Source: a virus. From it: 21,724 nucleotides of DNA. The stretch is taken from IMG/VR virus record IMGVR_UViG_3300017963_000233. The stretch is one strand, 5' to 3'. Shown piece by piece: positions 3,373 through 21,724 of the stretch. The position numbers were made by a program, and so were the translations under genes. How positions within the stretch are numbered: position 1 is the stretch's first letter; every line of letters starts with the position of its first letter. Under the pieces are notes generated by a model that did no database searches, was not told where the DNA came from, and saw nothing but the letters and a program-made list of their open reading frames with translations.

Positions 3373-4031
3373 CGTTTTATTTCCTCAATAAATGTTGGAT
3401 GTACTTTTGTTATGAATTCCTCGAATCGAAATATGACTGTAAGATCGTCGCCCATACATAATGAATTCATTTTGTTTGGAATGAAATCCACAATAATCAT
3501 CCATAGATCCATATGAACCATCATGCAAATATGTTTGAGATCCCGCTTGAAAATCAGAATAGAATGTTTTCTGTTTGTTTCTTCTCTTTCTTTTTCCAGC
3601 TTCTTCCACCACTTCATCAACACGCTCTCTTTGTCGGAATCAATGTAATCAAGCGCGTCGATTGTTTCTCCTGATCGCTTCAACCGCCCTGCCGTATACC
3701 CTCTCAAGGCTTTCTCGATAGGTTGTTTTTTCGCTTTCGCTTTCTCTATAATGCTTTTGATGTCTTTCGTTCTGATTCTGCCAGTCGTCGTGTACCCTGA
3801 TTTAATCTCCACAATGAAGTTTCGAATGAAAGGCTCTCCTGCATCATCGATGAACATCAGATCACCAGCCGCATTGGCCGTTGTCTTTTTCTTTTTCATT
3901 CTCGATGTATGCCGTGATCCGCTGCCATGCGTTCTATAAAATATATCATCACGGGGATAATCTTCATCTTGAGTCCACCAAAAACTCAACATCTTTGCAA
4001 CATGCTTTTCGAATTCACTGCCTTTAGACAT
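3369..4031 (-). CDS. Holliday junction resolvase (Hjc-like PD-(D/E)xK nuclease)
   Basis: KGSEFEKHVAKMLSFWW...RTHGSG...AGDL...FIVEIKSG matches the Hjc-type motif order. Confidence 0.75.
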   Translation of the reverse strand: MSKGSEFEKHVAKMLSFWWTQDEDYPRDDIFYRTHGSGSRHTSRMKKKKTTANAAGDLMFIDDAGEPFIRNFIVEIKSGYTTTGRIRTKDIKSIIEKAKAKKQPIEKALRGYTAGRLKRSGETIDALDYIDSDKESVLMKWWKKLEKEREETNRKHSILIFKRDLKHICMMVHMDLWMIIVDFIPNKMNSLCMGDDLTVIFRFEEFITKVHPTFIEEIKR

Positions 4032-4959: not shown

Positions 4960-6045
4960 TCACATCCTGATCTTTGGCTTTCTCTCCACTTCCAATTCTT
5001 TCTGTATCTTGTACCATAATTTTATGGTTCTCTTTCTGACTTGTTTTTCAAGTTCTTTATCCTCGACATATTTGACAGCATCGAACATAGAAACATAAGA
5101 TTTGCCGTCCGTGCATTCATATTTCGTTGCGCTTGTGACATCTTTGTTGAACTGCAAATTCGCTCTGATATCATCGATTCCATATCCGAATGTAATAACG
5201 ATAGGGGCTTTTCGATAAGGAGGATCGCAGGAATTCTTGATGACTTGGCATTCTGTTACGATTCCGATGCTCTTTGAAAATGTGCCAGATATGCTGTCGG
5301 GATCATCTGGATCAGTCTTTTTGATCTGTCTTTCTTTGTCGATCACTTTATTGATTTTCATTCTGATTCTTACGGATGAATAAAATTTGACAGCATTTCC
5401 GCCTGTCGCATAATCTCCATATTCTCCCTGCCTCATCTGATTCGAACATGCTATGACAAGGCGTTTGTCGGGTATCTCTCTTGCAACATGAGTCATCCCT
5501 TGACTGAATGCCTTTGCCCTCGCTTGGCCCCTCTTGTCTTTGCCGTCCATCCCCATCTCTGTCGTAAAAGCAGCGAGTGAATCTGGTGCAACGATATTCA
5601 CGACATCTTTGCGTTTTGGTATTGCTGTTCGAATACAATCGAATATTTGTTCGACGGTATCTGGTCTCGAATAATTGGTACCTTCTGCTTTTATATTGAC
5701 TCCATATGTTTCCATATATGAAGCATCCATCCGTGCTTCTGGATCAAGCACCCATGCTTGCCCTCCCCTTATCTGTGTGCTTCTTATCATCTCAACAAGC
5801 AATGCTGTTTTGCCGCAACCAGGAGGTCCAAAGCATTCCATTATGATCCCCGATGGTATACCACCTCCTTTCACCCTGTAGCCAGACACCGCAAGATCAA
5901 GCAACGTAGAGCCAGTGCTTATCATTGCATCGAAGTTGCCAGATGGTGCGGTGAACTTGAATTCTTGAGGATCAGGTTGCTCTATCGCCTTACGCACCTT
6001 ATCTTCATGCTTGGGTTTTTTGCCTCTGAGAACTGGTTTAGGCAC
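4960..6045 (-). CDS. recA: RecA/UvsX-like recombinase
   Basis: ISTGSTLLDLA, GGGIPSGIIMECFGPPGCGKT (Walker A), DPE, DSLAA, NQMR, TGGNAVKFYSSVRI, IKNS. GTG start with AAGGAG RBS. Confidence 0.93.
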   Translation of the reverse strand: MPKPVLRGKKPKHEDKVRKAIEQPDPQEFKFTAPSGNFDAMISTGSTLLDLAVSGYRVKGGGIPSGIIMECFGPPGCGKTALLVEMIRSTQIRGGQAWVLDPEARMDASYMETYGVNIKAEGTNYSRPDTVEQIFDCIRTAIPKRKDVVNIVAPDSLAAFTTEMGMDGKDKRGQARAKAFSQGMTHVAREIPDKRLVIACSNQMRQGEYGDYATGGNAVKFYSSVRIRMKINKVIDKERQIKKTDPDDPDSISGTFSKSIGIVTECQVIKNSCDPPYRKAPIVITFGYGIDDIRANLQFNKDVTSATKYECTDGKSYVSMFDAVKYVEDKELEKQVRKRTIKLWYKIQKELEVERKPKIRM

Positions 6046-7249
6046 TTTGTTTTCTCCTTACAACAGGACGCCTCTTTTGTTGAGGTTTTTCTTTTGGTTT
6101 TTCGCTTTTGACTTTTGGCTTTTCAGCTTTTTTCTCCGACATCAGACGATCTTCCTCTTTGTTGCATTCATCCCATTTTGCACATGTACCGCAATCATCG
6201 GGATATTTCTCTAAGTCAACTCCAAAAACGTGACCATAAGGGCATTGATTTCCCTCGTCAGTATGTCCGCTTCCCGTATCACCATCTTCACTTTGCTCTT
6301 GTTTACTTTTTCTTGTGATAGGAGGTCTACGCACTTGTCGAGTATTTTGTTCAGTTCTTTCCTCTTCATCTCCGCCTCTCTCACTATCTTCAGTTTCTTG
6401 TTCTGTTTCATGTGGCACATCGTCTTCCATCGGATTTTCATATTCTTCATTGTGTGAGGATGCGGAAGGGTATGAAGTGTATCCTTCTTTTGGCGGCTTT
6501 TTGCCGTGAAATGCAATGTACAATTCCTCATAGGGTACATGCATTTTTATTGCTTCATCAAGCGGGAATGTTTGATCGAGTATGCTTTCTGGTATTGGCT
6601 CTTTGCGGTCAAGAAACTTGCAATGGCTTATCTTTCTGCCCTCCCTCTCAACACCTCTCGCATCTTTGTATGAACCCGACTTCTCAAGTTTGAAATAAAA
6701 AGTTTTGCCCTTGTCAGGATCAGCGAAAGGAATATGTCCTCCGCCCATTGGCATCTCTGATTCCTCTTTCATTTTCTCGTAGGACCATGAGAAAGAGGAC
6801 TCATATATGTGAATCCCCTTAGCTTCTTCCTCACTCGTATTGTGGGGCCATATCAAAAACACGCATCGATCTTTGGCGGCTACTTTTTTGAACTCGTCCT
6901 CTGGCAATCTGCCCCGTGCGATCATGTATTCTTTGATGGGGTCTGGCTTATTCCAATTGTCGAATGGGGCAACATAGGGGATTCCATTATTGCATGAATT
7001 CTGATATACCCAAAGCCTAACCATAAAATGCAGTTCATCTTTTTTCACTGTTGGATGCTGTGATCCTGCAAAAAAAGGAATAACATCGAAACTGTTGTCA
7101 CCAATTCTGGGACTCCAAAAACCGATACCTTTTGGAATCTTTTCAGTAATGAAAATACTTCCAAAGTTCCTCTGCCCTTCATTCGTTGCCTCTTTGTGTC
7201 TTTTGCTCAGATCTTGCTTGCTTTTCTTCATTTTGTCTCTAAAGCCCAT
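6038..7249 (-). CDS. gp32-like single-stranded DNA-binding protein with a long C-terminal extension
   Basis: Aromatic-rich N-terminal domain (FDVIPF, FADPDKGKT), acidic linker, Cys-rich module. Located directly before recA, as in T4-type recombination modules. Confidence 0.65.
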   Translation of the reverse strand: MGFRDKMKKSKQDLSKRHKEATNEGQRNFGSIFITEKIPKGIGFWSPRIGDNSFDVIPFFAGSQHPTVKKDELHFMVRLWVYQNSCNNGIPYVAPFDNWNKPDPIKEYMIARGRLPEDEFKKVAAKDRCVFLIWPHNTSEEEAKGIHIYESSFSWSYEKMKEESEMPMGGGHIPFADPDKGKTFYFKLEKSGSYKDARGVEREGRKISHCKFLDRKEPIPESILDQTFPLDEAIKMHVPYEELYIAFHGKKPPKEGYTSYPSASSHNEEYENPMEDDVPHETEQETEDSERGGDEEERTEQNTRQVRRPPITRKSKQEQSEDGDTGSGHTDEGNQCPYGHVFGVDLEKYPDDCGTCAKWDECNKEEDRLMSEKKAEKPKVKSEKPKEKPQQKRRPVVRRKQSA

Positions 7250-7251
7250 AA

Positions 7252-7509
7252 TTAATTCTCCTCATTGTATTTTAGCCTTTTGTTGTCAAGCCAGTACTGT
7301 AAATGATCGATGAGTTCTTTAACTTCTTCCCTGTTCAAATGATAATCCCCATCAACCCACAAATACGAGCTACCTGGATTGGATATTGCATCTTCATAAT
7401 CGCCAACTGCTGAGGATTCTTGTATCAAGATCCCTTCAGTTCCTTCTTTTGCGGTATAGATTGGATGTGCTATCCTGATGAACCCCCTTGGCGTCTTGAT
7501 CGTTTTCAT
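7252..7509 (-). CDS. Phage hypothetical protein
   Basis: 85 aa, AAAAGGAG RBS; TPRGF...IQESSA...LWV...HLNREEVKELI pattern. Confidence 0.7.
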   Translation of the reverse strand: MKTIKTPRGFIRIAHPIYTAKEGTEGILIQESSAVGDYEDAISNPGSSYLWVDGDYHLNREEVKELIDHLQYWLDNKRLKYNEEN

Positions 7510-7535: not shown

Positions 7536-7615
7536 GCGGGAAGGCGACGGATGGCCGGTGGGTCCGCCGCTTTGTATCCCCGTTGTCCGACCTTGATCCC
7601 TTTCAGGCTTCCCGC
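7536..7615 (-). ncRNA. Putative ~80-nt structured RNA (closed 8-bp stem, abutting 8-bp hairpin, possible pseudoknot)
   Basis: Minus strand: GCGGGAAG...CUUCCCGC; GCGGCGGA/UCCGUCGC; GGUCGG is complementary to loop CCGGCC. The G-U pairs form only on the minus strand. GC-rich island in AT-rich DNA. Confidence 0.55.
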
Positions 7616-7626
7616 GTATTTCTGTG

Positions 7627-7913
7627 CGCGGAGGCAGGATTCGAACCTGCAAGTTGGTTATCGTTTCAGCCTATCCCATCGAGTGGTAATCAATGTTACC
7701 CGCCCATACCGGAAGGATAGGTTTTCGCATGGGCAACGCTCTGCTTATGCTGGCCTTGTCCAGCAGCAATTCTCCTTCTGTACTCTTCAGTTGCCTGAAG
7801 CTGAGAATACTCCCATACCAACAGCGCCATGTAACCGCGTCTACCAATGGCAAGCCTGTTTTTATCAAAACAGGGTGGGCCTCACCAATACTTGCCAATT
7901 CCGCCACTCCGCA
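7627..7913 (-). ncRNA. tRNA-like RNA (~287 nt) with large insertions in the D-loop and anticodon loop
   Basis: Acceptor UGCGGAG/CUCCGCG; D-arm GGCGGAA..UUGGUAGACGC (Leu-like); anticodon stem GGUUA/UAACC; T-arm GCAGG-UUCGAAU-CCUGC. No encoded CCA and no readable anticodon. Confidence 0.75.
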
Positions 7914-7932
7914 CATAATTATTCATTCCAAC

Positions 7933-8192
7933 CCACTTTAAATTTCTTTGTTATATCTATTCACGCTCTCTTTGTTCTCTTTGATATGACAGATCATTTT
8001 CTCTCGCAAACAATAAACCTCTTGTTACTGCTGCGAGCATTTGAATCTCAGGATCTTTATGTCCCTGACCTATTTTAATTAAAATTTCATTTAGATCTAT
8101 TCCGCGCTCATCTATTGATGATGCAATTTTGTTCATCTTCTCTATATTCATTTTTCTACCTCCATAGATATAAGTCCACTTTAAATTTCTTT
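7933..8192. mobile_element. Putative 243-bp single-gene cassette bounded by 17-bp direct repeats and inner 10-bp inverted repeats
   Basis: CCACTTTAAATTTCTTT at 7933-7949 and 8176-8192; TTATATCTAT at 7951-7960 and ATAGATATAA at 8164-8173. Confidence 0.55.
7957..8151 (-). CDS. Hypothetical protein (cargo of the repeat-bounded cassette)
   Basis: 64 aa, GGAGG RBS at 8159-8163; stop codon lies inside the left inverted repeat. Confidence 0.65.
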   Translation of the reverse strand: MNIEKMNKIASSIDERGIDLNEILIKIGQGHKDPEIQMLAAVTRGLLFARENDLSYQREQRERE

Positions 8193-8504
8193 AACTCTGA
8201 TAGTGATCCCGACATTCCTCACATACTCCGATGACGGAACATTCCAAGCGATAAATTCAAGTTCCAAAACACGGCCATTGTCCATTTTATCTGCAAAGGT
8301 CTTTGAATACAGTTTTGGTATGTAACCAAGTTTTTCATCACCATATACGACTTGTATTGCGTTTTTGTCGAATGGATTTGTAGGTTCGCGTACAAGTTTT
8401 AATTTTTGAGGATTGAATTCCTTATTACTTTTGTAGAGTTTTAAAATGGCATCTTGATAGAAACTGACACCGGCTACTTTCAAAGTGTAATCGATTTTAC
8501 TCAT
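8181..8504 (-). CDS. HIRAN domain protein
   Basis: VAGVSFY...LVREPTNPFDKNAIQV...LGYIPK is the HIRAN signature. Likely start is ATG 8504 (MSKIDY) with AGGAG RBS, not 8624. Confidence 0.88.
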   Translation of the reverse strand: MSKIDYTLKVAGVSFYQDAILKLYKSNKEFNPQKLKLVREPTNPFDKNAIQVVYGDEKLGYIPKLYSKTFADKMDNGRVLELEFIAWNVPSSEYVRNVGITIRVKEI

Positions 8505-9006
8505 TTCTTTTTCTCCTTTGATTGTACCCCTCTTGCAATTGTTGTAGATGATCCGATTCTGCCAATTTTGTTCTAGCTTTATCCAACTTGTGTTGTTCAA
8601 TGAAATCAGGCACAGACCAAACATTTTTCGATATTAATTCAGTCATGTATTTGAGCATCGATCTTCTATGATCGCATCCGCTTAATGCTTGAGTCCAAAC
8701 ATTAAGCTCCTTCTGCACCTTTTCCATTTCATCACCAAGTTCAATCAATTGTCTGTCTGATTGGATGGTTGCTTTAATTGCGGCTTCTTTGACATCTTCA
8801 ATACCGTAATCACTCGGATTTTGTCTTATTTTCAGTTCTACATCACTTTCAAGGAGTTTTATTTTTCTTTGGAGTGATAACTTTTTTGACTGACAATCGG
8901 CATATTTCTTTGCGTATTTCGCAAATATATCGGTTTGTTCCCACATACTCTTTAGAATGTTGTTTGGATTGATTCTTATATCTTTTGTCCAATCATATTC
9001 ATTCAT
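8497..9006 (-). CDS. UvsY-like recombination mediator (coiled coil)
   Basis: Helical 169-aa protein (DIRIN...WEQ...YAKKYA; KEAAIKATI; DHRRSMLK). Context next to the clamp loader and SSB/RecA. Confidence 0.5.
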   Translation of the reverse strand: MNEYDWTKDIRINPNNILKSMWEQTDIFAKYAKKYADCQSKKLSLQRKIKLLESDVELKIRQNPSDYGIEDVKEAAIKATIQSDRQLIELGDEMEKVQKELNVWTQALSGCDHRRSMLKYMTELISKNVWSVPDFIEQHKLDKARTKLAESDHLQQLQEGYNQRRKRNE

Positions 9007-9050: not shown

Positions 9051-10019
9051 TTAGAATGGAGTATCGTTTTCAACACCATCGTAAACAGCAAGCCAACACG
9101 CCATCGACAATCCGAATTTGCCTGTATCATAAAAATGATCAGTAAAAAATTTCATCATTTCAGTGATATCGGATGCAGTATTGTATTGAGTGTTTTCATT
9201 CAAAAGTACCTTATCGAAGTAGGCAAGAATCATTCGCCTTACTCCTTCAGCATCACCGCTGAATCCGCTCAAGATTGGTCTTAGTTCATTCCATTTATCG
9301 TTTGCATTTCTTTTCGTTTTTACAAGTATTCTGCAAATTTCGATCACTGCCGTTTCGCCGTATGATGCCGATTCGATGCCTTTTATAATTGCATCGTAGT
9401 CGTCAAGATCTATGATGGAGTCGAGAATCTTCAGTGCGATACCTGGAGCACCATTGCTGACTTTGGCGATCTTTTGTATTGCTTCTTCTGGGTATTCATC
9501 GAAACCTTCAGCTTCTATGATACCACCTAAAAACTCTACCATCGTTTCATCGTCAATCGGTTCAAGATTGACAATGTGGCATCTTCTTTTGATTGTGGGC
9601 TTTAATTTCTCTGCTTCAGTCGTGCAAAGGATGATTGCGGAGTCTGGTGGCGGGTTTTCAAGCATCTTCAGCATTGCTTCTTGTGCGGGACCTGTTACCC
9701 CGTGCACCTCATCGAACAACACTGCTTTGATATCGCCGTTTGGCACAAGACCAAGCATCTCTTTAACATCTCTTATGTTCTGAATGCCTCTTTCGCTTGA
9801 GGCGTCGAGTTCAATAAAGTCGAGATCGGAACATCCCAACTTTTTCCTTATGATGTATGCAAGTGTTGTTTTCCCGCATCCTGCAGGTCCAACAATCAAG
9901 TATGCGAACGGTCTTTTTTCTTTGTGTCTGTTCAGTTGCGCTTGCAGTTTTCGAATTTCGTTATCATTGCCAAAGAATGAGTCAAGGTCGTCTGGTCTAT
10001 AATCGTGTTGCAGCGGCAT
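9051..10019 (-). CDS. Clamp loader AAA+ subunit (DnaX gamma / RFC-like)
   Basis: LQHDYRP, FFGN, AYLIVGPAGCGKTTLA, ELDASSERGI, LFDEVH, MLKMLENPP, IILCTTE, IKRRC. Start moved to ATG 10019 (GGAGG RBS). Confidence 0.88.
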   Translation of the reverse strand: MPLQHDYRPDDLDSFFGNDNEIRKLQAQLNRHKEKRPFAYLIVGPAGCGKTTLAYIIRKKLGCSDLDFIELDASSERGIQNIRDVKEMLGLVPNGDIKAVLFDEVHGVTGPAQEAMLKMLENPPPDSAIILCTTEAEKLKPTIKRRCHIVNLEPIDDETMVEFLGGIIEAEGFDEYPEEAIQKIAKVSNGAPGIALKILDSIIDLDDYDAIIKGIESASYGETAVIEICRILVKTKRNANDKWNELRPILSGFSGDAEGVRRMILAYFDKVLLNENTQYNTASDITEMMKFFTDHFYDTGKFGLSMACWLAVYDGVENDTPF

Positions 10020-10020
10020 T

Positions 10021-12669
10021 TCATCCCTCCAGTATCTTTGAAATTTTATGATCGTCAATCGGTTTTTTCGTAGACCATGCAGCATCTATTTCCGTATCTT
10101 CAAAATCGATCACAAGTGGTACATTGATGAAATCGAATCTTTCCCTTATCTGTTTCGTTCCAATGTCATTGATCGTTTTTATGATATGGGATTGTTCATC
10201 TGGTACTTGATCCTCAAGCCCGCTGTCATGAATTTGTGCAATCGACTTTGTTTTCCACCCCTCTTCTCGCCTTACATCTGCTACTCTCAATTTCGTCCAT
10301 AACAAAATATGAAAAGCAGTACCTTGTATCTGATGATTCGTACAATCATTTTTACCGAGTATGCCGCAATGTTCGAATCCAAGCAAAGACTCGATATACC
10401 CTTTTTTTCTGAATTCTCGATTGACTTCCTGTTTCCATTCATTGTAAACACCAAACCGCTCTTGCCAAAACTTCTGTTCAACCTTTTTGCAGTGTTCAGT
10501 AAAATCCTCAAGCGTTTTCAATCCTACCTTTGTAAAATGCTCCTTGAGATGTTTGCCTGATTTTGTTTCGATCACTTTTTTCCTCAGTTCTCTCCACATT
10601 GCCAATGCACAATTCCCGTAATAATCTCCATAAAATTGAGGAAACACCCAACCATTTTTCCCAAATATGAATCTTATTTCTTTTGTGATTTCTTCAGGGG
10701 GCAGCATTGTGATATCGACAGCGGAATCCCTGTGCATGTCGGTTGATTTGTCGGTGACGTATTTGATCATCTGTGGATCTTTGTGATAAAAGCACCCCGC
10801 ACACACTTCAATTCCGCTGAAATCCCACTCCATCAGCTTGTTGCCGCGCGACGGTACGATGCCCGATTTGCATATTTTTTTCGCATCTTCATCATGTTCA
10901 GGTATGTTCTGCCAATTTGGGTCTGAACTGGAAGATCTATAACTCCTCACTCTATGCAAATGGTAGAAGGGATGAATTTTGCCGTATGTGACTTCCCTTA
11001 AGAATTGAGCGATATATTTATTGTCGATGTCAAGCCAAGAATTCATCTTCTGGTAGAGTCTTATGTAGTTTGAATCTTTGGTTCCAAGTGCTTTTTTGCT
11101 GATCGACACGTTTCCCTTCTGCGTCTCCTGTTTTTCGATTCCTATTATTTCGAAAAACAGTTTCTTCTTGTCGTCATCTTTTTTCAAACTCAATGTGTAG
11201 CCGTACCTCTCCTTGAACTGCTTCGCATATTGATGCTCTACCTCAAGCTCCCTTCTCCTTTCTTCGATTTTCTTTCTCAAATCTTGCCTCGACTCCGCAT
11301 ACAGATCTTCCTCGATATGTATGCCGTTTATCGTCATCTCTGAAAAATCAACAGCACCTTCCATCAACAATTCAAGTGCTTCGATTATTTTTGGATTTCT
11401 CTCTGATCGCCTTTCAAATTCAAGATCTTGCTTGTGATAGTTTTTGAGTGCCCATTTAGAATCAAGTCCACCATATACCAGCAATTTATCAATCGGACAT
11501 CTTGTCATGTTATTGAATGCGTTTGAATTTTCCGCTTTCTTGTACTGTTCGATCTCACTGCCGTATGGGTATATTCCAAAATTCTTGTAATTTTGAAAGT
11601 CGAGTGAAGTAATCCCGCTTCTTGAATCGAGTACATGGGCTCCAAGCATTGTGCAGTGGTACCAATTGGAGACTGGTGTGTTCATAATGACGCTTGACCA
11701 TATCTCCTCGAACTGTATATTCTGCGCCACTTTATAAATATCGCTTTTGAGGAATCGTTTCCACTTCTTTCTGATCTCTGAAATTTCCGACTCTGAAAAG
11801 TGGTTTGGATATTCGAATGGAAAAGAATAGGATGCTCCGTTGTCTATCGCAAATGATATCGAAACAATCTTATGCCCCTTAACAAATGGTTTTATCCCTG
11901 TCGTTTCGTAGTCGAATGCAGCAAGCGATACGTACCCGTTGTTCAGAAGATCGAGTGCATCATTCACATCACCGAATTTGTAAAGGCAATGCACATCTTG
12001 TTTTGAATCGATAGGGTCGAAATCTTTTTTGTCAAGGCACTTTACTGCATTCTTCAAATCTCTTTTCCATACCGCCAATTCATTCGCTTTCCTCTCATTT
12101 TCACATCTCATTGCGAAACTTGGATGGTGCATCGGCAAGATATAGGCATTGTAGCGGGTGTCTGGAATGCACCATCCCCTCCAAGTAGACATTTTGATAT
12201 GTGAAAAGTAGTCCATAAAAAAGGACTTCAATGCTGCCCTGCCAAGAAGCCATATGAATTTTGGCTTTGTTTCTTGAATGGCTTTTTCAACGAAAGGTCT
12301 ACAGTATTTTATTTCATCGTCTTTGGGTTCTCTGAAGCTGTTGAGGTCTGGGGTATAGGGGCAACAGTTTACGGCATTGATTTTGAAGAAGTCTCTGTCA
12401 AGCTCAACCCCTTCATCCTTCAACTTCGATCTGAAATAATTACCGACATCACCAACGAGCTGGTATCCAACTTCATCTTCCTTTCTCCCGTTCGCCTCTG
12501 CGACAATCAAACACCCCCTTTTCCCCTCCCCCGTATAAGACAGCTTCGGATTCTTGTTTGTCTTGAACATGCCGCACTGCATACAAGACACATCCGCTTC
12601 CATCCTCGTGTAATCATAATGACATTGCTTGTCGAATTCCTCTTCATCAATTCCAAAAAATCCAGGCAA
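10021..12669 (-). CDS. polA: Family A DNA polymerase with an N-terminal family-4 UDG-like domain and a 3'-5' exonuclease
   Basis: UDG: CMQC, AEANGRKED, NAVNCCP, YC, HHPSFAMR. Exo I: FDYETTG. Pol: RSSSSDPNWQNIP, motif A WDFSGIE, motif B K..WVFPQFYG, motif C QIHDS. Confidence 0.92.
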   Translation of the reverse strand: MPGFFGIDEEEFDKQCHYDYTRMEADVSCMQCGMFKTNKNPKLSYTGEGKRGCLIVAEANGRKEDEVGYQLVGDVGNYFRSKLKDEGVELDRDFFKINAVNCCPYTPDLNSFREPKDDEIKYCRPFVEKAIQETKPKFIWLLGRAALKSFFMDYFSHIKMSTWRGWCIPDTRYNAYILPMHHPSFAMRCENERKANELAVWKRDLKNAVKCLDKKDFDPIDSKQDVHCLYKFGDVNDALDLLNNGYVSLAAFDYETTGIKPFVKGHKIVSISFAIDNGASYSFPFEYPNHFSESEISEIRKKWKRFLKSDIYKVAQNIQFEEIWSSVIMNTPVSNWYHCTMLGAHVLDSRSGITSLDFQNYKNFGIYPYGSEIEQYKKAENSNAFNNMTRCPIDKLLVYGGLDSKWALKNYHKQDLEFERRSERNPKIIEALELLMEGAVDFSEMTINGIHIEEDLYAESRQDLRKKIEERRRELEVEHQYAKQFKERYGYTLSLKKDDDKKKLFFEIIGIEKQETQKGNVSISKKALGTKDSNYIRLYQKMNSWLDIDNKYIAQFLREVTYGKIHPFYHLHRVRSYRSSSSDPNWQNIPEHDEDAKKICKSGIVPSRGNKLMEWDFSGIEVCAGCFYHKDPQMIKYVTDKSTDMHRDSAVDITMLPPEEITKEIRFIFGKNGWVFPQFYGDYYGNCALAMWRELRKKVIETKSGKHLKEHFTKVGLKTLEDFTEHCKKVEQKFWQERFGVYNEWKQEVNREFRKKGYIESLLGFEHCGILGKNDCTNHQIQGTAFHILLWTKLRVADVRREEGWKTKSIAQIHDSGLEDQVPDEQSHIIKTINDIGTKQIRERFDFINVPLVIDFEDTEIDAAWSTKKPIDDHKISKILEG

Positions 12670-16717: not shown

Positions 16718-17343
16718 GATATGATGCCTTTTTCATTAACCTTCGCACGTTTGCCAAATATTTTTACACCATATTTTTCACTCAATGCGTCAGTGATATA
16801 AGTCCGTGCAGTGGATTTCGCTTTTTTGGGAAATTTCGCAACCGCTTTGTCAAGGACTTGCTTTCTTGTCCATTTCCCCTGATCGATCAGTTTGATGATA
16901 TATTCCTTCATCTCCGATTTTCTTGAACTCTTTCTTGGCTTTTTGATTTCAGGTTCAGGTTCAGCTTCTTCAGGTTCTTCCTCTTCTTCATCTTCTTCAT
17001 CAATCTCATCATCGGCTTCTTCCGCTTCAGCTTCTTCAGCTTCTTCTTCATATTCAGCTTCAGCTTCAGCAGCTTCTTCCTCTTCGCCGCCCTCCAATTC
17101 ATCCTTAAACAGCATAGTGTAGAAATTGACGACATGTTCTGGAAATTCAAGTTCTTCAGCATCGGTTCTGTTCGCAAATGCTTCATACGCTTCCACGAAT
17201 GTTTTGACTCTATCCTCTTTCGTCACACCAATATACCGCAAATTCTTTTCGAGAAGTTTGTTTCCCGCCGCATCACACATGTCATTCAAACCCCTGATTG
17301 CAACATTCAAATGCCCATTCTCTAATTCTGCAACTTCTTTCAT
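16708..17343 (-). CDS. Hypothetical protein with an acidic low-complexity linker and a basic winged-helix-like C-terminus
   Basis: Strong AGGAGG RBS; E/A/D-rich central tract; basic helical C-terminal domain. Confidence 0.75.
   Translation of the reverse strand: MKEVAELENGHLNVAIRGLNDMCDAAGNKLLEKNLRYIGVTKEDRVKTFVEAYEAFANRTDAEELEFPEHVVNFYTMLFKDELEGGEEEEAAEAEAEYEEEAEEAEAEEADDEIDEEDEEEEEPEEAEPEPEIKKPRKSSRKSEMKEYIIKLIDQGKWTRKQVLDKAVAKFPKKAKSTARTYITDALSEKYGVKIFGKRAKVNEKGIISWS
16949..17093. repeat. Low-complexity (GAA/GCT)n coding repeats encoding the EEEAAEAEAE linker
   Basis: Repeated ttcagc/ttcttc units on the + strand. Confidence 0.7.
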
Positions 17344-18093: not shown

Positions 18094-18483
18094 CTACCTC
18101 ACTACCTGAGCGAATGCACCGTCTGTTTCATAGATTGTTATTTCCTCAAGGACAAGAGGATTGTATCTCTGATACGTTTTATTCAATTCCTGCAATCTAT
18201 TGTCGATCTTCTCAAAGGCGAATTCACAAAGATTCTCTACGGTGGGAGGCTTTTTGATTTCATCGATGTCATTGAGGTTGTTGTGATCGACAGTGCAGAG
18301 GACTTCTTGATGGACGATTTCTTTCAAATGTGCAAAGTCGATTATCATTCCATGATCACCTATCTTACCGCTCACCTTCACAAGCATTCTCGCATTGTGC
18401 CCATGTTGGTTCTGACATGTGGGGTGGCCAGGCAAAAAATGGCCATAAGAGAACTTGAATTCTTTGCATACGCTCAGTTTCAT
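18094..18483 (-). CDS. queD: 6-carboxy-5,6,7,8-tetrahydropterin synthase
   Basis: HFLPGHPTCQNQHGHN, GMIIDFAHLK, DHNNLND, PTVENL, YET. Confidence 0.93.
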   Translation of the reverse strand: MKLSVCKEFKFSYGHFLPGHPTCQNQHGHNARMLVKVSGKIGDHGMIIDFAHLKEIVHQEVLCTVDHNNLNDIDEIKKPPTVENLCEFAFEKIDNRLQELNKTYQRYNPLVLEEITIYETDGAFAQVVR

Positions 18484-20588: not shown

Positions 20589-21724
20589 TCAATCCCATTT
20601 GTATTGCAAAATGAACCCGCACTTGTCGAGATATGTGGGAACTCTCTCTTTAAGCGTTTTGTTGGACAAGAAGAAGCCAGGTGTTATCCTCATCGTGCCG
20701 TTCACATCCTCCTTTATCGCATTGTAAAATATTTCAGCCATCTCCTTGTATGAAAAATGAAATATGCCTCTATTCCAATACCTGTCCTTTTTTGGATCTT
20801 TGAAAAAGGCATAGATCGCATAACTCGCCATTATGAGCTTATCCATCTCAGGTTGCGTCTTTGGCTTTTCAATGTGTTTCAGTATTTCTGCAAGGATTTC
20901 AGGCTTACCTCTATTGCCGGCAACAGGTTGTCCAGGTTTCTTCTTTGGCTCACTGTGAAGGCATTTAATGAAACTGCTTTGATTGACTTTCGAATAAGGG
21001 CAAAAGAGGAATCGTTCAAGGTAAATGCTTAGATTGTTTTTATTGGCAGGATAGTATTCTGGGTCGAATTGCAACGCATACCGGCTAATCGCTAATTTGA
21101 TTTCATCAACGGAATATTTTCTAACGTGATCTTCAAATCCAGAATGCCCTTTGAATAGTGAACCGTTCAACGCCATTTTGATTCGTTCAACATCTTTCGT
21201 ATATTGTTTTGTTCCTTCCGCAGGGCATTTCTTAATGTAATAATCTTCATAATAAAAATCCAGGATTTCTTTTACGGCAAAAGGTAGTTTAATTTCTTTT
21301 GTTTCAGGTCGATGCTTTTTGTTGAGCAAGAGATGATCGTTTTGGTGGGGATTTTTAGAACCCATACGGGATCGAAACGAAGTTTCGTTAATAGTTTTAT
21401 TTATAAAACTATTATCAGAAAATGTATTATATTTATTATATACTTTAATCTCAGAGTGATCCAGGTTCACCCGGGGGGTGAACCTTGAACACTCCCCATC
21501 CCCATTATTGGGTAATTCTGGTTTACCCGGGGGGTGAACCACATTCACCCCCCTATCACCTTGGTTTTCTTCTTGCGGGGTATGAGATTTATCTAATTGG
21601 GGTGACATTTTGTCTGGTGTCTGGGATTCACTGGGTTTATCAGTGTTTTTTTCTTCATTTGAAAATTCATTATAATATTCGATTATCCATCTCTTTTTAA
21701 TTGTATAAGTGTTACTGCTATTCC
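20589..21724 (-). CDS. Putative phage replication initiator (frame open to the window edge)
   Basis: The frame stays open upstream of ATG 21608 to 21724 (...NSSNTYTIKKRWIIEYY..., resembling the wing of a wHTH). Contains internal palindromic repeats and an AT-rich tract, and directly precedes the helicase. Confidence 0.55.
   Translation of the reverse strand, partial: NSSNTYTIKKRWIIEYYNEFSNEEKNTDKPSESQTPDKMSPQLDKSHTPQEENQGDRGVNVVHPPGKPELPNNGDGECSRFTPRVNLDHSEIKVYNKYNTFSDNSFINKTINETSFRSRMGSKNPHQNDHLLLNKKHRPETKEIKLPFAVKEILDFYYEDYYIKKCPAEGTKQYTKDVERIKMALNGSLFKGHSGFEDHVRKYSVDEIKLAISRYALQFDPEYYPANKNNLSIYLERFLFCPYSKVNQSSFIKCLHSEPKKKPGQPVAGNRGKPEILAEILKHIEKPKTQPEMDKLIMASYAIYAFFKDPKKDRYWNRGIFHFSYKEMAEIFYNAIKEDVNGTMRITPGFFLSNKTLKERVPTYLDKCGFILQYKWD
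21385..21553. other. Putative replication origin (palindromic iterons plus AT-rich unwinding tract)
   Basis: GGTT(C/T)ACCCGGGGGGTGAACC at 21464-21484 and 21520-21540, inverted half-site TTCACCCCCC at 21544-21553, AT-rich tract at ~21385-21450. Confidence 0.6.

Follow-up and report, generated by a model that had tools for sequence, protein, structure and literature searches.

We identified a 243-bp unit in the recombination operon of an uncultured tailed phage, which we interpret with moderate confidence as the footprint of a recent insertion of one small orphan gene, made through the phage's own recombination or replication and now a fixed scar. The unit consists of a 226-bp insert that carries a 64-aa open reading frame (ORF64), ends in perfect 10-bp inverted repeats and lies between two copies of a 17-bp direct repeat. 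The window (the whole analysed stretch of 21,724 nucleotides, IMG/VR record IMGVR_UViG_3300017963_000233) represents the minus-strand UvsY-HIRAN-SSB-UvsX recombination operon of this phage. Nothing shows that the cassette is still mobile or that it is part of a new gene-capture system.

The phage has a genome of about 86 kb; the ENA assemblies ERZ27256783 and ERZ27256798 contain it as contigs of 68-86 kb, and the Logan run SRR6963591 in pieces. The part of the genome that was inspected comprises 40.5 kb joined from three loci, which corresponds to 47% of the 85.7-kb contig k141_217507. The phage encodes UvsX, UvsY and SSB, together with a FEN-type exonuclease, a PD-(D/E)XK protein and a 7-deazaguanine pathway. 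GenBank phages contained no same or similar DNA to the window, either near or distant. All genes in the part of the window considered here lie on the minus strand and are given in the order of transcription in Table 1. The start of the HIRAN-domain gene overlaps the end of UvsY, and its last three codons and stop lie within the right repeat. The 403-aa protein encoded downstream is, judged from a 46%-identical homologue that is so named and from its constant place, probably the gp32-like ssDNA-binding protein of the phage; in relatives its homologues are always found between UvsY/HIRAN and UvsX. Searches of this protein against Pfam, PHROG, NCBIfam and PDB sequences gave no match.

Table 1. 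Features of the recombination operon and of the ORF64 cassette, in the order of transcription (positions in the window).
Feature	Position	Strand	Remarks
UDG-PolA	10021-12669	-	
Clamp loader	9051-10085	-	
UvsY	8497-9006	-	
HIRAN-domain gene	8181-8504	-	107 aa as called on all contigs; Pfam HIRAN, E=2e-11
Direct repeat, copy A	8176-8192	-	K-E-I-stop and 5 nt of HIRAN; TAA at 8181-8183
Insert proper, 226 bp unique to the cassette	7950-8175	-	no similarity to the flanks
Inverted-repeat arm, 5' end of insert	8164-8173	-	2 nt inside copy A, directly upstream of the Shine-Dalgarno sequence
Shine-Dalgarno sequence GGAGG of ORF64	8159-8163	-	7 nt before the ATG (8149-8151)
ORF64	7957-8151	-	64 aa; called on 5 contigs
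Inverted-repeat arm, 3' end of insert	7951-7960	-	holds the ORF64 stop TAG (7957-7959), then an in-frame TAA
Direct repeat, copy B	7933-7949	-	HIRAN 3' end duplicated, non-coding; the tRNA-like RNA follows after ~20 nt
GC-rich tRNA-like RNA	about 7627-7913	-	GC 51.6% vs 40% for the window
ORF85, accessory gene between HIRAN and SSB	7252-7509	-	phrog_3849, E=2.4e-5
Probable gp32-like SSB	6038-7249	-	403 aa; homologue named T4 Gp32 ssDNA-binding by UniRef
UvsX/RecA	4960-6045	-	

Three further observations were made on the surroundings of the cassette and on the window end. The tRNA-like RNA has tRNA-type ends (acceptor and T-arm) with large internal insertions; it received no ARAGORN or Rfam call, and gene callers placed an 81-aa ORF (7671-7916) across it. 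The 68-kb assembly of the phage (L021/L062, contig k141_1309612) stops at ~7584, between this RNA and a second structured stretch at 7536-7615, which may reflect a break in coverage or variation or may be a mere assembly end. Close to the end of the window lie two 42-nt units (21456-21497 and 21512-21553) that are 76% alike and 56 nt apart, each of them containing a GC-rich palindrome around a G run.

The layout of the cassette agrees in every detail with an earlier note on this DNA, which had been made from the sequence alone. The two 17-mers are in direct orientation, are identical at 17 of 17 positions and have a start-to-start distance of 243; neither the window nor the 40.5 kb contains a further copy when up to three mismatches are allowed. 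The two 10-bp arms just inside the 17-mers are exact reverse complements of each other, and the gaps that separate them from the 17-mers, 1 nt on the left and 2 nt on the right, are unmatched. The right 17-mer represents the last HIRAN codons and stop followed by 5 nt, and between the arms there is only a GGAGG ribosome site and ORF64, whose stop falls within the left arm. On the coding strand this gives the succession copy A, 2 nt, arm, GGAGG, 7 nt, ORF64, second arm, 1 nt, copy B. The description as a one-gene promoterless cassette was likewise borne out: the unit is discrete, and neither repeat has a promoter-like or terminator-like site on the coding strand. With 10/12, the best sigma-70-like match in the region (7892-7919, plus strand) lies within the RNA gene and points antisense toward ORF64; the total of such sites in the region equals the shuffle expectation, so that this match carries no weight. 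A perfect 14-nt AT-only palindrome at 8072-8085, within ORF64 and off the centre of the cassette, is probably compositional.

The combination of 17-mers and inverted arms was confirmed to be neither chance nor misassembly. Identical cassette sequence was present in independent ENA and Logan assemblies, which excludes an assembly artefact. That the repeats have no common origin and merely coincide in AT-rich sequence is scarcely credible. The window is indeed AT-rich, and exact direct repeats of at least 17 nt arose somewhere in 9% of the windows simulated with a second-order Markov model; however, they arose within 3 kb in 4% of the simulations and within 500 nt in none of 300. The inner inverted repeat adds to this, as an inverted repeat of at least 10 nt that starts no more than 10 nt from two arbitrary boundaries has p = 1.7e-4 in the 40.5 kb of the same genome, and the boundaries of the cassette match exactly a gene that is missing from relatives. 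In the 40.5 kb, 164 direct-repeat pairs of at least 11 nt were found and the inner inverted repeats of the longest 40 of them were compared. Among these 40 pairs the next-best inner inverted repeat was 5 nt, and the other ORFs bounded by direct and inverted repeats for which the earlier note had proposed a search, or a second cassette of the same architecture, did not appear. An exact 15-nt direct repeat (16937-16951 and 18248-18262), with its copies 1311 nt apart and no inner inverted repeat, is within chance for a window of this size. Past the right end of the window, the early operon of the phage (L060:800-9000) contains many intergenic direct repeats of 14-64 nt that bound small genes; these are composed of hairpin halves and a box with a Shine-Dalgarno sequence, and their sequence is unrelated to the 17-mer or the arms.

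Searches with UvsY, HIRAN and SSB in IMG/VR and in JGI metagenomes yielded only one relative at 76% and more distant ones. The closest relative consists of three short JGI/Logan contigs (L025-L027), whose UvsY is 76% identical to that of the window. Its HIRAN protein is 51% identical overall and shares the last nine residues (GITIRVKEI) with the window, indicating that copy A belongs to the native coding sequence and that copy B duplicates it without coding. The ATG of SSB in this relative lies 3 nt past the HIRAN stop (MGFREKM, compared to MGFRDKM in the window), and ORF64, the tRNA-like RNA and ORF85 are all missing. As HIRAN thus abuts SSB in the closest relative, the three are lineage-specific insertions at one junction, and the span of roughly 930 bp from HIRAN to SSB in the window is lineage-specific. 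With perfect repeats on both sides, ORF64 appears to have been added last at this junction. The ORF85/SSB boundary is the best match in the 40.5 kb to the junction of the closest relative; its interpretation as a third, older junction copy was dropped, because generic sites of Shine-Dalgarno sequence, spacer and ATG score 13/18 against 14/18 for this boundary.

A relative at 58% likewise has a large gene at +7 after HIRAN, and in still more distant relatives UvsY, SSB and UvsX are tightly arranged, with HIRAN located elsewhere and small ORFs occasionally intercalated. One of these (L064) contains a 54-aa ORF between UvsY and SSB (3837-4001) and a 60-aa ORF between SSB and UvsX (5321-5503). Flanking repeats longer than 7 nt were not found at either of the small ORFs of L064, indicating that repeat-bounded insertion is not the rule in this family.

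ORF64 itself was searched for extensively. A word-indexed search of 5.8 billion proteins returned only ORF64 itself, and an exhaustive search of 1.84 billion representatives gave three weak matches besides, none of them real: they are long, repeat-laden proteins and were rejected as spurious. No match was obtained in Pfam, PHROG or NCBIfam, tblastn against GenBank phages and PLSDB plasmids returned nothing, and there was no usable atlas feature match. The possibility raised in the earlier note that the ORF occurs at other loci thus found no counterpart in the protein sets, phages or plasmids searched. An AlphaFold2 model made with no alignment predicts three helices (pLDDT 92.8), and this model has no significant fold match in the PDB. 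By these sequence comparisons ORF64 is an ORFan. Its GC content of 34% is close to the 35% of HIRAN and UvsY, and its Shine-Dalgarno sequence resembles the strong ones of the small early genes of the phage. ORF64 is therefore not foreign-looking, which is consistent with the same phage gene pool as its source. The 226-bp insert aligns to its flanks with a local score of 10, against a null of 10.4 +/- 1.5, ruling out a decayed tandem duplication of the 3' part of HIRAN, and no similar sequence was found elsewhere in the 40.5 kb.

The earlier note had proposed that the unit is an excisable mini-circle. In one part this holds, since recombination between the repeats could release 243 bp and would restore the HIRAN end; in the other it found no support, as the predicted circle junction was absent from IMG/VR and from 185,579 species genomes. 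Five contigs of the phage, 99.96-100% identical to the window, all carry the cassette and show no difference within 7900-8200. The suggested empty-site allele was not encountered among contigs with identical ORF64, HIRAN or RNA region, a near-clonal sample of low power. Given this lack of population variation, neither gain nor loss of the cassette has been observed. The 17-mer has 17 scattered single matches in IMG/VR, in unrelated contexts and all without arms. Both arms occur at cassette-like spacing at 26 places in IMG/VR, which is the chance expectation in AT-rich contigs, and none of these 26 pairs has flanking repeats longer than 7 nt or similarity to the cassette. The arms together with the inner ends were absent from the 185,579 species genomes, and a family with the ends of the cassette was found neither there nor in IMG/VR. 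In line with the earlier statement for the window, the Pfam matches recorded for the called genes there and in the 40.5 kb include no integrase, transposase or other site-specific recombinase family.

As predicted, the junction of the circle is a site of 40 nt in which a perfect 10-bp stem carries a 20-nt loop made of the core. Folded as ssDNA, it has a dG of -3.1 and -2.9 kcal/mol for the two strands (z about -1.9 and -1.6), and its inner halves have no dyad symmetry. The att-like ssDNA hairpin that had been suggested is thus a weak one.

Three routes could lead to the observed footprint: errors of the phage's own machinery, cut-and-paste by a transposase with a long staggered cut, or Campbell-type entry of a circle. 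In the first of these, the 226 bp would have entered the operon, bringing ORF64 with its own strong ribosome site and ending in the 10-bp inverted repeats, and the target, made up of the three final HIRAN codons with the stop and 5 nt, would have been duplicated to give 17 bp on each side. HIRAN stays intact in this way, and ORF64 would be read from the operon transcript. We infer that short-homology recombination or template switching by UvsX/UvsY-type machinery may have been the route, in which case a dedicated recombinase would not be required; the process would be of the kind that shuffles ORFan cassettes and gives rise to mini-circles in T4-type phages. Irrespective of the route, the 17-bp repeats make the cassette deletable, as recombination or slippage between them would leave one copy of the core, restore exactly the end of HIRAN and possibly release a 243-bp circle. 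This route is favoured because the element is unique, has only a Shine-Dalgarno sequence of its own and is phage-like in composition, and because the phage has a full UvsX/UvsY/SSB system. It is further favoured by the finding that short repeats flanking ORFans form mini-circles in T4-type phages without a dedicated recombinase (PMC2839356), and by the early operon of the same genome, where other small genes lie between repeated linkers.

What plain homologous or illegitimate recombination leaves unexplained are the perfect 10-bp inverted ends, placed symmetrically within the duplication (p about 2e-4). Inverted ends inside a duplication are a classic mark of transposase-type or att-type insertion, and a 17-bp target duplication seems to need a staggered cut or a circle that carries the core, which also speaks against general recombination. 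For this reason a reading of the unit as a MITE-like element and one as an att-type cassette stay alive. According to the former, a non-autonomous element of 226 bp was pasted in by a transposase acting in trans, from the host or a co-infecting element, with the 17 bp as target-site duplication. The succession of direct repeat, inverted repeat, cargo, inverted repeat and direct repeat is the canonical layout of such elements, the position of the inverted repeat has the low probability given above (p = 1.7e-4), and phage genomes do contain MITEs; the size falls within the 50-800 bp of prokaryotic MITEs, and with 10 bp the ends just reach the minimum of 10-15 bp (PMC11602168). Nevertheless, we consider this origin unlikely: the duplication of 17 bp exceeds the 2-10 bp of MITEs (PMC11602168), one and two unmatched nucleotides separate the inverted ends from the duplication, and the element is coding, with ORF64 and its Shine-Dalgarno sequence. 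It is also single-copy, with only the chance arm pairs in IMG/VR and no match of its ends in the species genomes, and the 40.5 kb contains no transposase.

An att-type cassette, in which a 243-bp circle of arm, core and arm enters at the 17-bp core at the HIRAN end and can be excised again by a recombinase encoded elsewhere, is in our view quite unlikely, more so than the MITE-like origin. The arrangement does correspond to the attL/attR of a Campbell-type insertion, with an identical direct core and arms on the inner sides only, and the copy of the target 3' end borne by the element keeps HIRAN intact. Integrative elements at tRNA genes likewise restore the 3' end of their target gene. The att cores of tyrosine integrases, such as that of SXT/prfC, moreover span a range of lengths that includes 17 bp, and two other lineage-specific inserts are present at the same junction. 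On the other hand, no recombinase family was recorded for the called genes in the 40.5 kb, the arms are 20 nt apart compared to the 6-8 bp overlap of tyrosine recombinases, and the core is without dyad symmetry. The site does not resemble attC, and the hairpin it forms (-3.1 kcal/mol, z = -1.9) is weak. The absence of the circle junction from IMG/VR and the species genomes, the scattered single core matches without arms, the lack of an empty site among contigs with identical HIRAN or RNA, and the restriction of ORF64 to this one locus also count against it. An extended form of the same idea, which we find very unlikely, is that the HIRAN/SSB junction is a dedicated insertion site where ORF64, as a minimal att-type cassette moved as a small circle by a recombinase of the phage or host encoded elsewhere, followed the RNA and ORF85 as earlier captures; were it true, the phage would have a gene-cassette system distinct from integrons and PeSLs (promoter-early stem-loops).

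A role at the RNA level is very unlikely as well. Here the arms, together with self-complementary hexamers of the 17-mers, would pair in the operon transcript to form a long-range helix that encloses the ORF64 cistron and could serve as a processing site or in translation control upstream of the tRNA-like RNA. Both the minimum-energy and the centroid fold of 7925-8200 (minus strand) hold the 10-bp helix, extended by pairing of the 17-mers, and repeats made of hairpin halves are seen in the early operon of the same phage. However, the fold is no better than those of shuffled sequences (z = -1.08, with 33 of 200 shuffles at least as stable), and the helix is AU-rich and spans 203 nt. The pairing furthermore uses 6 of the 17 repeated bases, so that the perfect identity over 17 nt is left unexplained.

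The closest published analogue is the PeSL cassette, although the ORF64 cassette is not a member of that group. PeSL ORFan cassettes and mini-circles were described in the T4-type phages RB49 and phi1 (Arbiol et al., 2010; PMC2839356). The mini-circles arise by recombination between the short repeats that flank the ORFans, with no known site-specific recombinase, and the authors compare PeSLs with integrons (PMC2839356). Shared with the present case are single orphan genes framed by short direct repeats, a phage whose recombination genes are of the T4 type, and the presence or absence of the ORFan between relatives, since ORF64 is missing in the 76% relative where HIRAN abuts SSB. PeSLs differ in being multi-copy, in carrying a sigma-70 promoter and a terminator hairpin and in lying in hyperplastic regions (PMC2839356). 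The repeat of the ORF64 cassette, in contrast, is a two-copy duplicate of the last 17 bp of a coding gene in the core recombination operon, and the cassette has neither promoter nor terminator but does have separate 10-bp inverted ends inside its repeats. Circles have been demonstrated by inverse PCR for PeSL (PMC2839356), whereas the ORF64 cassette is known from its sequence alone.

The integron analogy that had been proposed is not supported. Like an integron cassette, the unit is promoterless and contains a single ORF, its first bases are the inverted complement of the bases just past the ORF, and its circular form would bear one palindromic site. Unlike in integrons, IntI is not among the Pfam matches of the called genes in the 40.5 kb. 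Whereas attC sites measure 57-141 bp and have R''/L''-L'/R' boxes and extrahelical bases, the site of the cassette is 40 nt long and has none of these, and its boundary heptamers each have a base off the GTTRRRY/RYYYAAC consensus. The duplicated part is 17 bp that lie outside the arms, in the would-be loop, instead of a 7-bp core that contains the crossover, and there is one cassette and not an array with varied attCs. Clusters of attC sites without an integrase (CALINs) have been described in phages (Qi et al., 2023; PMC9892861). Lambdoid morons are also solitary accessory ORFans between conserved genes (Hendrix et al., 2000, as cited in PMC2839356); as far as they are described there, morons have their own promoter and terminator and no defined flanking repeats, and the ORF64 cassette is the reverse.

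With regard to the other two systems discussed above, the cassette resembles MITEs in being a 226-bp unit with terminal inverted repeats and a flanking direct target duplication, and departs from them in the length of that duplication, the 1-2 nt gaps, its gene cargo and its single copy. Compared to Campbell-type attL/attR, the identical direct core that restores the end of the target gene and the element-specific arms on the inner sides agree, whereas a 243-bp element without integrase does not; the arms are too distant for a simple recombinase core, and an attP-like or attB-like (empty) sequence was not found. As PeSL cassettes, phage attC clusters and phage MITEs (PMC11602168) have already been described, the earlier note goes too far where it says that the cassette may reveal a gene-capture route not yet described in phages. 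The unusual point is that three things occur together: a duplicated end of a coding gene, inverted termini and a place inside the core recombination operon. That a genuine site-specific cassette system stands behind the unit is, in our estimation, very unlikely.

As one instance without variation or relatives, the ORF64 cassette is an anecdote and not a system. Its interest lies in the fact that accessory ORFans are the main source of gene novelty in phages, while their insertion is seldom observed with its traces preserved. The junctions of the ORF64 cassette have remained perfect, and the insertion took place in the middle of a conserved recombination operon instead of a hyperplastic region. 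Should precise circles or empty sites prove to be real, the PeSL mini-circle idea would extend to another type of repeat and another phage lineage, and the cassette would provide a defined substrate for studying how gene cassettes enter and leave phage genomes.
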